A DNA stretch of 64,000 nt from Candidatus Eiseniibacteriota bacterium (lineage in GTDB: Bacteria; Eisenbacteria; RBG-16-71-46). Made by a program: the position numbers and the translations under genes. Shown piece after piece: positions 45,185 to 64,000 of this stretch. Numbering within the stretch: position 1 is the stretch's first letter; each line of letters opens with the position of its first letter. The notes below the pieces were generated by a model. That model was not told the origin of the DNA. It was given only the letters and a program-made list of their open reading frames with translations, and did no database searches. Location: the NCBI GenBank assembly GCA_963717935.1, contig CAVQXP010000003.1, forward strand, positions 56,819 to 120,818, written 5' to 3'.

Positions 45185-46029
45185 TTAATTAGTATTTTGA
45201 AAGTTGCCAGCATTGTTTGTATTATCAATGCCGAGACCTCCGTTGCTTGCCTCGCCCGTAACCTTAAGATCAATTATCATTTCCGGCCAGTAGATGCCAT
45301 TTTCCAGTTGGATGTTAATTTTAACTAATCGGGGCAGAACTGTTTTATTCAGCCATTCCGCATTCCAGACTCCTTCGCTCATTCCATCCTCTGAACCAAA
45401 ATAAGCCAGGGAAAAATCGCTTACGTGCCTTATTAACGTCACCTCTTCATCGGGCCATTTTGAGCCCTCGGCCAACTTGGCAAACGGGGTTAAATTCACT
45501 TTAACAATCGGCTCATTATCTTCTTCCGTCAGAGATAAGGAAAATAACTGTAAACCGGACCTGCCGGCACTTGCCGGGAAAGCTGAAACAAAATGTACAG
45601 AGTCTGCATTGCCTTGAAAAGAAAAAGTTTTCTCTTCATCTTCTTTAAAATCATTCCATAAGGGTTGTGCAACAGATAGATGCCTTTGAAAAAAATTATA
45701 AACGACAGCGATTTCATTGACTTCAGATATCTTGGTTTCACCCTTCTCCCAGCTATCGGCACAAATTTTTAAACTGGTAAATAGTAGCACAACCATAATA
45801 CTTAATAGCGTCATCGCGATGAGTACTTCAATCAGGGTAAAGCCACCCGGGCGCGAGGAGCTCAAACGGTGTGATCGTTCAGTCCCCTCTTTGGAAAAGA
45901 GGGGTTAGGGGAGATTTTATTAGATAAATCCCCCTCAATCCCCCTTTTACAAAGGGGGAGGTGAACGCTTACCAAACGGCAGGTTTTTTTAATTCTGTGC
46001 CTTGTTCCCTGCGAATTAATTGCTCTCAT
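45185..46029 (-). CDS. gspJ: T2SS minor pseudopilin J; probable start 46029 with a frameshift in the leader (alternative TTG at 45865)
   Basis: GFTLIEVLIAM prepilin motif; C-terminal W...W....LPRLV..WPE. Confidence 0.85.
45871..45972. repeat. MITE/REP-like palindromic element, copy 1
   Basis: Near-identical to 57788-57890; internal CCCCTCTTT/AAAGAGGGG and CCCCCTTT/AAAGGGGG hairpins. Confidence 0.88.
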
Positions 46030-57100: not shown

Positions 57101-57631
57101 CTACTTTGCCGCCAACAAACTTTCCACCAAGGCACGCAACTCCTTGGCGTCTCCAGGCCGAAAGCCCAGATGCACATGATGAACAATGCCCTTACGGTCA
57201 ATCAGATAGGAAGACGGCATGGCTTTTACGTCAAAATCGGTGGCGCATTGCTTGCTGACATCCGCCACCACCGTAAAACTGGCCGGAATTTTAGCCAGAA
57301 AGGCCTTGGCATCCTCCGGGTTTTCATCCAGATTGATGCCGACTATCTGTAACCCCTTATCTTTAAGTTGCTCGTGCATTTCATTCAGAAACGGAAAGGA
57401 TTGAGCGCAAGGCCCGCACCAGGAAGCCCAGAAATCGACATACAAGACCTGGCCTTTGTATCGCTGTAAATCTTCTGTTTGGGTTGAGCCGATAGGCGAC
57501 ACCTTGCAGGCCGGCATAGGGCTTCCTGCCTCTGCCGCAAAAACAATCGAATTGACACAAAAAACCGCCAGAGCCAGACCTGTTTTTAAAAAATTTTGGT
57601 ACCTCAAGTTACGCATTAATTTATTTTCCAT
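57101..57631 (-). CDS. TlpA-family disulfide reductase
   Basis: YVDFWASWCGPC, MPSSYLIDRKG. Confidence 0.92.
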   Translation of the reverse strand: MENKLMRNLRYQNFLKTGLALAVFCVNSIVFAAEAGSPMPACKVSPIGSTQTEDLQRYKGQVLYVDFWASWCGPCAQSFPFLNEMHEQLKDKGLQIVGINLDENPEDAKAFLAKIPASFTVVADVSKQCATDFDVKAMPSSYLIDRKGIVHHVHLGFRPGDAKELRALVESLLAAK

Positions 57632-57684
57632 CAGTTAGCGGGTAGCTGTTTCGTCTAAGGAACCAGCTCGAATTAACTTGAACC

Positions 57685-57726
57685 TCTTACTCCCTCTCCC
57701 TCCGGGAGAGGGTTGGGGAGAGGGGG
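57685..57726. repeat. REP-like CCCTCTCCC/GGGAGAGGG palindromic repeat
   Basis: TCTTACT-CCCTCTCCC-TCC-GGGAGAGGG-TTGGGGAGAGGGGG. Confidence 0.75.
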
Positions 57727-57787
57727 ATATCGTATTCAGGTTATTTCATGCCTGTGCCTAATAATGGGTAATTGATATTGTCAATTT

Positions 57788-57890
57788 GTAACTATTCAGT
57801 CCCCCTCTTTGAAAAAGAGGGGTTAGGGGAGATTTTATTAGATAAATCCCCCTCAATCCCCCTTTTCCAAAGGGGGAGGTGAATACTTAC
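57788..57890. repeat. MITE/REP-like palindromic element, copy 2
   Basis: Terminal inverted repeats GTAACTATTCA / TGAATACTTAC; matches 45871-45972. Confidence 0.88.
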
Positions 57891-57947: not shown

Positions 57948-58856
57948 TTAGGGCGCATTCTTTTTCCCTTGGGTTAGTTCTTCAAGTTTTACCGCCGCCA
58001 GGCTCCGCACGGATTCATCGCTATCATTAATAGCCTGTTGCAGCAAAGCAACATCATCGGTAATGCCATCGACCGCCATCATCCTGACATCGGTCGACTT
58101 ATCATGCATCGCTTCTTGGATGGCTGCCGCTGCTCCGCTGCCTTCGCGGTGCGCCAAAGTCGAAATAGCCTGCGCCCTGACATTGTCATCCTTATCGGTC
58201 AGCGCTTGCTCCAGGGCGGCTTTTACAGCCGGATCGCCTTTTCTGCCACCGGCCAGCAACGCGCCAAGGGCTTCTGCCCGCTCTGCCGGAATTTTTGATT
58301 GTGCCGATTTCAGCAGACTGTCAGTTTGATCAGGCTCGCCATTGGCATCGTTTTCATTCAAATCAAGTGTCAGCGAAGCTTTCCCGTCTGCTCCCCCTCC
58401 CGGACAATCCGCACGGGCAATGGAACCGTCAAGCCTGGAACCCAAAATCCAGGCTTCAGCCACTTGCCCCTGGCTGGCTGCATTGCCGGGGCTACGCTGA
58501 TAACGGACGATTAAATCCGCTTTTCTATCCAGCAGACATTCCAAAACCTGCTTTAACGTGGAGCCGACACAAGTGGCCGTTACCAAACCTTCAGGAAGAA
58601 CCGAATAATGAATCGGTACACTGGTTTTATGGACAATATTCTCCAGCACTTGTGCCAGTGGCATTTGCCTGACTTCCAGTTGCATTTCAGTGCCTTTGTC
58701 TGCACCGATAAGGAGATTGGTCTGCGCTTTTTCAGGGATCATAGCCGGTGCTTTAACAGGCGTTTGGGCAACCGCTATTCCTGTAAATACTGTGAGGAGA
58801 ATGATCAACCACTGCAATGAAAACATATGGAATGATTTTGTATAATCTAAACGCAT
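57948..58856 (-). CDS. Exported HEAT-repeat protein
   Basis: Signal peptide; ALTDKDDNVRAQAI, AMHDKSTDVR, AINDSDESVR repeats. Confidence 0.8.
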   Translation of the reverse strand: MRLDYTKSFHMFSLQWLIILLTVFTGIAVAQTPVKAPAMIPEKAQTNLLIGADKGTEMQLEVRQMPLAQVLENIVHKTSVPIHYSVLPEGLVTATCVGSTLKQVLECLLDRKADLIVRYQRSPGNAASQGQVAEAWILGSRLDGSIARADCPGGGADGKASLTLDLNENDANGEPDQTDSLLKSAQSKIPAERAEALGALLAGGRKGDPAVKAALEQALTDKDDNVRAQAISTLAHREGSGAAAAIQEAMHDKSTDVRMMAVDGITDDVALLQQAINDSDESVRSLAAVKLEELTQGKKNAP

Positions 58857-62189: not shown

Positions 62190-62949
62190 TTATTTTGACC
62201 AATGACCCGGAACACGCAAATTAGCATCAACATCCGCAGCCGAAGGGGTCACTGTCACGGTAATACCGCCATGACATCCTCGTGGCAGAGGATTATATCC
62301 TTTTCGGGTATCACGGTTAACCTGCAAAACAGGGGGTTCACCCACGCCTTCAACTCCGGCAGCAGCGCCTAATGCAGCATATTGGGAGCCGTTGTCAGGT
62401 ATCCACAAGTTCACTTTATCTGCCTGAATGGTTGGCTTGGAAACATCGCAAATGTCGGCGATAGCAATCTCAATATTCAGCTTCTTGACGCATGAAGTCG
62501 GAACGAAATTAGGCGCAGTAAAAGCAAACGGTACGCGGCCCTCCAAATCCACTGCAAGCGAGCCTGCTTTACCATAAAATCCAGAAACATTGCCTAAGGC
62601 ATCGACTTTCTCCTCTCTGTACAGTAAAGATATCTTTACTTTGAATTAAATCGACCAGGCCCGCAATGGTTCCTTGCTCTATAACGGCGGCCAGATTGGC
62701 TGGGCTTTGAACAGGGTTTCCACGAGAGTCAGTGGCAGACAGTACAGGATTGTTAACAGGGAATACCACGCTCTGCAGGATTATGGGTTTTTCTGACTCT
62801 TCGCAGCCGTGGGCAATTTTTATTGCATTATCGTCAGTAGTTCCTTCCAGCGCCTGACTTTTTATTTCGTCATCCGCAAAAGCGGAGTTGCTGATTATTA
62901 AGGCTGTTAGCGTGAAAAAAACAATTTTTTGTAAAGCTTTGCGCTCCAT
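62190..62949 (-). CDS. Secreted paralog of the 60502-61423 protein; frameshifted
   Basis: AFA|DDEIKSQALEGTTDDNAIKIAHGC..QSVVFP; CVKKLNIEIAIADIC; VTVTPS. Confidence 0.65.
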
Positions 62950-63021
62950 AAGGTTCTCCATTAGGGCGTTGTTAAAATAATTTAAATTACGTGATGGAAA
63001 CTAAATCACTCGTAAAAGATA

Positions 63022-63037
63022 TGCACCATTCATGCCA
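63022..63037 (-). promoter_or_regulatory. sigma54-like promoter
   Basis: TGGCAT-GAATG-GTGCA upstream of ATG 62949. Confidence 0.6.
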
Positions 63038-63165
63038 GCCAATAAATTGAATACGACTAAAGACAATTATACCTTTACAGTCGCATAAAACAGCGGAATG
63101 GTCATAAAAGCTACGTGTCTCCACGCCGTTAAGGAACGTGCATGAAATAACTTGCACATCTTACT

Positions 63166-63251
63166 CCCTTGTATGTTTAACAAAGACAGCAAACCCTTGT
63201 ATGTTTAACAAAGACAGCAAACCCTGTATGTTTAACAAAGACAGCAAACCC
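63166..63251. repeat. Three tandem copies of a 28-bp unit at the IS110 left end
   Basis: CCCTTGTATGTTTAACAAAGACAGCAAA at 63166, 63194 and 63222 (third copy 27 bp). Confidence 0.92.
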
Positions 63252-63254
63252 GAG

Positions 63255-63423
63255 TTTTATTAGAATAGGGTTTCTAATAAAAATGATGTGGTAGACCGTT
63301 GGCCCTCTGGTTGTCAGAAGCCGTGGGAGAGCGTAGGTCGCCACATCAATCCCCATTAACTCGAACAGTTGCCAGGAGCATCATTTTGACTCCGTATCTA
63401 CAAGGCAGAGAAACCAGGGTATT
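63255..63423 (+). ncRNA. Putative IS110 bridge RNA
   Basis: 5' hairpin TTTTATTAGAA/TTCTAATAAAA; two stem-internal loop-stem modules (TGATGTGG/CCACATCA; GGAG/CTCC) carrying guide-like segments. Confidence 0.7.
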
Positions 63424-63428
63424 TGATT

Positions 63429-64000
63429 ATGACGAATAAAACTTATCAGTTCAACATAGGCGTTGATATAGCAAAACATAAATTAGATGTTTCTTTTAGT
63501 GATCAACGGGTTGTTTCTTTTGAAAACAATCAGTCTGGATTCAAGCTGTTATTAAAAGAAATAGAAAATAAGTCCCAAACCCGTGTGGTCATGGAGGCAA
63601 CCGGCGGCTATGAAAAACCTTTAGCGCATTTTCTTCAAGACCACGGGGTTGCCGTAAGCATCGTCAATGCCAAGCGGGTTAGAGATTACGCCAAGGCATT
63701 GGGTCTATTAGCAAAAAATGACGTCATTGATGCGAAAGTTATACGTATGTTTGCGGATGCGGTCAATCCTAAACTATTGCCAGCTGCAAACGATACCCAG
63801 CAAGCACTTGATGCTCAGGTACATCGACGTGAACAGTTGGTAAAACAACGAGCTATGGAAAAACAGCATTTAGAGACCGTAGGCAATAAAGATGCCGTTC
63901 GATCCATCAAGCGGACTATTAGTTTTCTTGACAAAGAAATTGAACGCATTGAGAAAACCATCAAGGCCTTGATTAAGACCGATTCTACTCTTACCGAGAA
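63429..64000 (+). CDS. IS110 recombinase/transposase (DEDD RuvC-like), 3' truncated by window edge
   Basis: MTNKTYQFNIGVDIAKHKLD...VVMEATGGYE...VNAKRVRDYAKALG..AKNDVIDA; absent from the ORF track because there is no stop in the window. Confidence 0.95.
   Translation, partial: MTNKTYQFNIGVDIAKHKLDVSFSDQRVVSFENNQSGFKLLLKEIENKSQTRVVMEATGGYEKPLAHFLQDHGVAVSIVNAKRVRDYAKALGLLAKNDVIDAKVIRMFADAVNPKLLPAANDTQQALDAQVHRREQLVKQRAMEKQHLETVGNKDAVRSIKRTISFLDKEIERIEKTIKALIKTDSTLTE

Follow-up and report, generated by a model that had tools for sequence, protein, structure and literature searches.

The locus and its insertion sequence

The end of the window, i.e. the whole 64,000-nucleotide stretch of DNA that was analysed, is occupied by an insertion sequence (IS), the features of which are collected in Table 1. 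Positions 63170-64000 very probably represent the left part of an IS110-group, IS621-like element, with a bridge RNA encoded in the long left end, ahead of the recombinase gene. The visible part of the reading frame matches the profile PF01548 (N-terminal DEDD, RuvC-like domain) over positions 1-148 of 155 with an E value of 2.2e-24 and 86.4 bits against a cut-off of 29, and the transposases of IS621 (8wt6, E 2.8e-17) and ISCro4 (9t56, E 2.3e-17) were its only matches in the PDB. Proteins of 318 aa that are 97-98% identical over the 190 residues contain PF01548 as well as PF02371, and one of these close homologues carries the name "IS110 family transposase [Methylococcales bacterium]". The residues D13, E56, D98 and D101, which we take to be the catalytic DEDD residues, are invariant across 10 aligned sequences. 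The window stops at position 64000, which leaves the C-terminal catalytic domain (PF02371) of this copy outside, together with its right end and right junction; a search for the right end ACAGTTGCT gave 0 matches inside the window.

The closest relative with DNA context is locus L001 from a Candidatus Methylobacter oryzae MAG (CAMAUL010000050.1), which shows 86% amino acid identity over the 190 residues; on this basis the host of the window would be a methanotroph of the Methylobacter type (Methylococcales). An exact second copy of the IS was found in none of the genome contigs searched, the best relative being this 86% identical one. In L001, the right end measures 15 nt from the stop codon to the core. 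The IS is located about 200 bp upstream of a minus-strand ORF for 130 aa (62569-62961) with a hydrophobic N-terminal stretch resembling a signal peptide. For several relatives (proteins P0001-P0008) gene callers have carried the transposase start upstream through the bridge-RNA region, and the spurious conserved N-terminal peptide (..LTRTVARNLRFRIYKAEK..) of these proteins is the translated donor-binding loop. Such upstream-extended calls are a possible source of annotation errors in the family.

Table 1. Features of the insertion sequence, its predicted bridge RNA and the target repeat (positions in the window)
Feature	Position	Strand	Basis or remark
Intact paralogue of the interrupted repeat (model of the empty site)	57652..57735	+	Hairpin CCCTCTCCC-TCC-GGGAGAGGG; sequence and DNA fold
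Left half of REP-like intergenic repeat, interrupted by the IS	63127..63169	+	Ends in core CT, 63168-63169
Noncoding left end of the IS	63170-63428		259 nt, carries the predicted bridge RNA
Tandem triplication of the left tip of the IS	63170..63251	+	TRF period 28, 3.1 copies, 98% matches
Hairpin 5' of the target-binding loop, UUUUAUUAGAA-UAGG-GUUUCUAAUAAAA	63256..63281	+	MFE fold; segment conserved in L001-L010
Target-binding loop	63284..63348	+	CM alignment, all pairs standard; guide columns covary with flanks in relatives
Target loop, outer stem	63284-63297 with 63336-63348		Compensatory changes in 9 of 12 pairs
Left target guide GTTGGCCCT / GUUGGCCCU	63298-63306
Target loop, inner stem-loop	63309-63322
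Right target guide GGGAGAG	63325-63331		Terminal AG pairs with the core
Donor-binding loop	63360..63410	+	Outer stem CUC 63360-62 with GAG 63408-10
Left donor guide ACAGUUGCC	63365-63373		Includes ACAGTTGC at 63365-63372
Donor loop, inner stem	63375-78 with 63390-93		GGAG with CUCC
Right donor guide UACAAG	63399-63404		Reverse complement of CTTGTA 63168-63173 (core and left tip)
N-terminal 190 aa of IS110-family recombinase (DEDD/RuvC-like domain)	63429..63998	+	Frame open to the end of the window

Structure and covariation of the predicted bridge RNA

The original prediction had proposed an IS110 element with a bridge RNA in its left end from a set of short strings, and GTTGGCCCT, GGGAGAG, ACAGTTGC, TACAAG and CTTGTA are all present where it had placed them. 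The search of positions 62800-64000 against Rfam 15 with E values up to 10 returned five weak matches (best E 0.32), all of them far below the gathering scores and none representing a bridge-RNA family; hence, the structure was tested directly. For this purpose the left ends of the window element and of 24 related loci (25 sequences) were aligned, and a curated structure of 23 pairs in 4 helices was evaluated. In this structure 94.4% of 573 cells are paired, changes on both sides occur in 17 of the 23 pairs, and the covariation score reached 0.511 compared to 0.205 in shuffles, none of 500 being as high. When the 3' partners were slid by 1-3 columns as control, pairing dropped to 37-47%. Thus, the outer and inner stems of two internal loops, the architecture of a bridge RNA, form in the left end with strong covariation. 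Additional donor-loop pairs suggested by RNAalifold (columns 151-155 with 183-193) were dropped from the curated structure, because none of them changed on both sides.

A covariance model (CM) of the left end, built from the 24 relatives with the window sequence excluded, matched positions 63281-63413 over its full length with 119.8 bits and an E value of 1.2e-30, without a non-standard pair, and this was its only significant match in the window. In 77 of 80 related loci the same model found its match directly ahead of the transposase ORF; the three loci that were missed (L061, L071, L075) have at most 147 nt of upstream DNA each. Together with the PF01548 match and the decoding rule verified on relatives (see below), the two-loop fold and its covariation bear out the assignment to a bridge-RNA-carrying IS110 element. 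The guide-like strings might alternatively be chance matches in a noncoding leader that makes no bridge RNA, a view in line with the lack of an Rfam family at threshold and a single-sequence fold z-score of only -2.5. It is effectively refuted, because the left ends covary, the CM match reaches an E value in the range of 1e-30 and the permutation tests of guides against flanks gave 0 of 10000 permutations as good as the true pairs.

A bridge RNA in the left end is thus the preferred reading, and this RNA is presumably expressed. The hairpin at 63256-63281 contains a TAGAAT hexamer and could therefore be promoter DNA instead of part of the RNA; a promoter-like match AAGACA-N17-TAGAAT falls on it. 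The promoter scan as a whole gave 4 sites compared to 2.4 +/- 1.5 expected in shuffles, which is not above chance, and no promoter is claimed for that reason. The CM also detected second bridge-RNA copies at four related loci, L011 (1239-1366, minus strand), L033 (786-918, minus), L069 (6380-6508, plus) and L032 (584-720, plus), which suggests neighbouring or nested IS110 copies.

Guides and flanks among the relatives

According to the published description of bridge RNAs, left guides correspond to the top-strand sequence including the core, while right guides are the reverse complement of core plus right flank (PMC11208160). In the clade studied here, the right target guide consists of five variable bases followed by an invariant AG, the complement of the CT core. 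The five variable bases match the right flank perfectly in 11 of the 15 relatives for which both junctions could be placed, the imperfect cases being L015 (2/5), L022 (3/5), L003 (4/5) and L051 (4/5). On average 4.53 of 5 bases agree, compared to 1.24 in non-self pairs, and 0 of 10000 permutations were as good. At least nine different right-guide sequences exist among the relatives, for example CTGCGGG, CTTCTCC, CTCAATC and CTTGACA, hence the signal does not reflect one inherited match. For the left guide, the mean agreement of 4.33 of 7 bases versus 3.28 in non-self pairs was likewise reached in 0 of 10000 permutations, with the reservation that choosing the best of three registers inflates these values and that the fixed-register comparison by position is more trustworthy. 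The latter gave 2, 12, 9, 18, 17, 23 and 21 matches among 24 pairs at positions -7 to -1, i.e. the left-guide signal is mostly proximal. The clade therefore shows a right guide of 5+2 nt and an effective left guide of mostly 4+2 nt, a rule that is checkable on 15-24 relatives.

The right ends of 15 relatives read the 7-mer of the left donor guide followed by CT, and two of them show covarying changes, L058 (ACGGTTG) and L015 (ACAGTCG). Because the right ends had been located by means of this 7-mer, the match between right end and donor guide is partly circular; the match of the right flank that follows each right end is independent of the 7-mer search. Of the 23 relatives that entered the flank tests, 15 yielded a right end. 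L010 was dropped, its sole right-end candidate ATCAGTTGC being unlike a right end, and L019 was left out of the flank tests with its right end present (4/5 by eye) and its left flank absent; the remaining loci run into a contig end or hold no 7-mer of the left donor guide in the searched span.

Applied to the window element, the rule decodes the donor guides to ACAGTTG, the right end, and to CT-TGTA, the left tip. The donor-binding loop would accordingly recognise the element's own ends, with ACAGUUG for the right one and UACAAG for the left tip CT-TGTA. For the target guides, decoding gives CT-CTCCC from the right one, GGGAGAG, and GTTGGCC-CT from the left one, GUUGGCC-CU; the target-binding loop would specify approximately CC-CT in the left flank and CT-CTCCC in the right flank, which together make CCCTCTCCC. 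L001 shares the right target guide, the left donor guide and the start of the right-donor sequence with the window element. Its junctions are CCCAACC-CT/TGTATG on the left (the slash marks the insertion point) and ACAGTTG-CT-CTCCC on the right, the latter being verbatim the junction that had been predicted earlier for the window copy. From the sequence, the right junction of the window copy would read ACAGTTG-CT-CTCCC as well (...TTAACACAGTTG-CT-CTCCC-TCC-GGGAGAGGG...), where the expected right flank CTCCC is taken from the paralogous empty repeat.

The target repeat

The left flank TCTTACTCCCT at 63159-63169 is identical to positions 57685-57695, and the empty copy continues with CTCCC at 57696-57700, as had been noticed before. 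The identity is real, but its extent had been given too short, since the homology spans 63127-63169 against 57652-57695, with 36 of 44 columns identical and a score of 46, whereas 500 shuffles gave 24 at most. The homology ends exactly with the CT core, from where the empty paralogue continues into the hairpin, hence the IS sits in the 5' arm, at CC-CT/CTCCC. The equivalent site in the intact repeat is composed of TTACTCC (57687-93), CT (57694-95) and CTCCC (57696-700). This repeat forms a 9-bp stem in the DNA fold, is flanked by two ORFs of 80 aa or more (57101-57631 and 57948-58856), in the gap between them, and its opposite strand offers CCCAACC-CT-CTCCC. The string CCCTCTCCC occurs four times in the window compared to 0.72 expected occurrences, with 0 of 100 shuffles reaching four, and three of the four occurrences are located within one repeat (57692-57724). 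The 64 kb show the repeat only twice, in an intact and in an interrupted copy, so that the label "REP family" is partly based on similar hairpins of other Methylococcales genomes, where they flank the relatives L001, L004, L008 and L009.

Insertion into hairpins is also seen among the relatives. L003 and L004 are inserted at ATCTTAAGCC-CT-CTCC..GGAGAGGGC, a variant of the repeat, at the hairpin position that corresponds to ATCTTACTCC-CT in the window, while L001 is inserted at CCCAACC-CT/CTCCC, the arm shown on the other strand of the window-type repeat (57652-57735). As in the window, many relatives, among them L003, L004, L009 and the more distant L058 and L076, are inserted within a hairpin arm or next to one. 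Such hairpin-associated insertion is in line with earlier and newer reports on IS621 in REPs (cited in PMC11208160), on ISPpu10 and on ISPpu9. The relatives also show several IS110 lineages that differ in the hairpin repeat for which each is programmed, while the hosts are the same. The window holds a second hairpin-repeat family, CCCCCTCAATCCCCC, at 57848-57862 and 45930-45944 (2 occurrences versus 0.04 expected). Around the first of these, positions 57840-57880 read AAATCCCC-CT-CAATCCCCCTTTT and match the reconstituted target of a different IS110 lineage, L011, whose left guide is GTCCCCC-CT and whose right guide decodes to CT-CAATC; this stretch looks like an unoccupied site for another bridge-RNA element.

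The claim that the bridge RNA is programmed for the repeat family is supported for the proximal part of the target, because the decoded CC-CT-CTCCC is the 5' hairpin arm present at 57692-57700. It is not borne out in the window for the literal 14-nt decoded target GTTGGCCCTCTCCC, which is absent there, as is any match with fewer than two mismatches. With up to three mismatches there were 9 matches in the window compared to 9.19 expected, which is chance level, and one of the nine is the guide itself. As had been pointed out before, the left guide agrees with the actual flank only at CCCT plus one further base, i.e. at 5 of 9 bases if the core is counted; mismatches fall on positions -4 and -3, at which 18 and 17 of the 24 relatives agree with their flank. 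The claim that UUGGCCCU wobble-matches the other arm found no support in the relatives. Of the mismatches in true pairings of guide and flank, 15 of 66 were compatible with wobble, which is no larger a share than the 494 of 2235 in non-self pairings, and wobble as a left-guide rule was rejected on this ground.

The copy sits exactly at the decoded position of a repeat, which points to an insertion that would have been guided by the right target guide together with the core and the two left positions nearest to it. In this mechanism, CCCTCTCCC would be the 5' arm of the REP-like hairpin repeat that the element targets, and the mismatch at the left positions -3 and -4 marks the site as a near-cognate member of the repeat family, not as a perfect target. 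It is also quite possible, though we lean against it, that the cognate target is another repeat variant (about ..GGCC-CT-CTCCC) and that the window copy arose by an off-target or half-match insertion via right guide and core only. The left guide does fit its own flank TACTCC-CT less well than the arm TAAGCC-CT of the L003/L004 type, its mismatches at -4 and -3 are in accordance with such an event, and half-match insertion has been described for IS621 (10.64898/2026.08.31.748434). However, the window and the flanks examined contain no ..GGCC-CT-CTCCC site, and a left-flank match of only 4-5 of 9 bases is also found in L008, L002, L003, L006, L014, L041 and L058; hence, 5 of 9 may be normal for the clade. 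Guide-directed insertion into a near-cognate repeat is retained as the preferred explanation.

The triplicated left tip

A feature absent from the original prediction is the tandem triplication at the left boundary. Three exact 27-mers TGTATG...AAACCC follow each other at 63170-63196, 63198-63224 and 63225-63251, with an extra T at 63197, whereas 0 such copies are expected. Each unit starts with the right-donor sequence TGTATG, and CT precedes the first two, so that CTTGTA is present again at 63196-63201. The relatives L001-L010 hold the left-tip segment once. Similar arrays exist in two unrelated relatives: in L074 (Nitrospira, 2747-2784) the left tip is duplicated (2 x 18 bp), where L076 (2766-2790), a sister copy from this Nitrospira genome, has one unit followed by an internal GAAT-CT-CAAAG, and L044 from a cyanobacterium (2643-2785) contains four left-end starts, each preceded by CT, with units of 30 and 39 bp. 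In the arrays of L074 and L044 the CT core is found at all unit junctions. TRF applied to the 500 nt upstream of 80 loci reported arrays in 11 of them (L026, L040, L044, L050, L052, L053, L058, L060, L063, L070, L074), and among the four inspected (L044, L052, L053, L074) a start of the array at the left boundary was established for L044 and L074.

The phasing on the core in three independent elements suggests that the recombinase is involved in the origin of these arrays. The triplication would most likely stem from an event in which the left junction recombined with a site inside the left end at the core dinucleotide, either as a half-site reaction of the recombinase or as a self-insertion that was later collapsed by homologous recombination, and the element would thereby have acquired three nested left boundaries. 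A possible, though less likely, origin of the window array is slippage during replication on the short direct repeat CCC(T), with the recombinase uninvolved. It could draw on the microhomology of 3-4 nt between the flank, which ends in CCCT, and the unit, which ends in CCC(T), and the absence of the T from the junction of units 2 and 3 suggests imprecise events. Against slippage, the unit boundaries coincide with the IS boundary and the CT core in the window element, L074 and L044, and the microhomology in L074 comprises just CT.

Within the recombinase-based explanation, a still more specific idea is that the bridge recombinase acted on one right-donor half-site and that resolution in place gave the triplicated tip, which would be the left-end counterpart of the right-end-biased tandem arrays described in 2026; we regard it as speculative and, taken as a whole, unlikely. 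If it were true, the integrated copy would have several nested left boundaries and possibly its own promoter. At each unit junction AAGACA or TTAACA is located 16-17 nt upstream of a -10-like hexamer, and it is conceivable that the unit junctions have created a promoter, in which case bridge RNA and recombinase could be made without prior circle formation. Core-phased short left-tip arrays could, moreover, inform how half-site reactions of bridge recombinases resolve.

The rearranged left tip and the poor fit of the left guide might also be read as signs of degeneration, with the window copy being a decaying or inactive relic, and the part of its ORF beyond 64000 lies outside the window. Such decay is improbable, since none of the 23 modelled pairs is non-standard in the window copy, the ORF is open over all 190 visible codons with the invariant residues D13, E56, D98 and D101 intact, the 97-98% identical proteins are full length, and the identity of the three units suggests a recent event. 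The window copy is presumably active.

Comparison with known systems

The element is an ordinary member of the IS110 type, whose sole unusual trait is the presence of the left tip in three copies. It represents a further example of the known IS110/bridge-RNA systems and leaves the current picture of IS110 unchanged, but it adds a natural and internally consistent case of a bridge-RNA-guided IS110 among methanotroph elements. Among the known systems a close one is IS621, an IS110-group element of Escherichia coli that served to define bridge RNAs; the group is described as having a long noncoding left end that carries the RNA and a short right end (PMC11208160). The window element resembles IS621 in its DEDD recombinase (E 2.8e-17 to 8wt6), in the left-end RNA with target- and donor-binding loops, in the long left end, which in L001 is combined with a short right end, and in the CT core that is included in all four guide pairings. 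The natural target of IS621 also lies in REP sequences, as stated in PMC11208160 with reference to Choi et al. 2003. On the other hand, the protein similarity is distant (E 1e-17 over the N-terminal domain), and the wild-type target given for IS621 is ATCAGGC-CT-AC, compared to about CC-CT-CTCCC here. The right guide analysed in that work comprised four bases (PMC11208160), compared to five non-core bases plus core in our case. Moreover, the effective left-guide pairing in the present clade is mostly restricted to the four proximal bases, and the left tip is triplicated. The closest relative L001 differs from the window element in its left guide, AUAACC-CU instead of UUGGCC-CU, and in its single left tip.

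A second comparison concerns ISPpu10 of Pseudomonas putida, an IS110 element for which target recognition by sequence plus structure has been reported (10.64898/2026.03.19.712850). According to this source it inserts into copies of a conserved intergenic repeat with a GC-rich stem-loop, which the hairpin-arm sites found here resemble. Host and repeat sequence are different. Finally, tandem noncoding units next to IS110 transposases have been described and ascribed to half-match recombination by the resident system (10.64898/2026.08.14.744561). As in the window element, noncoding units have accumulated there in tandem beside the transposase. That description requires units of at least 50 bp, compared to 27-28 bp here, and the unit boundaries it gives are almost only matches to the left donor (LD, right-end), whereas those of the window element are of the left-end (RD) type.
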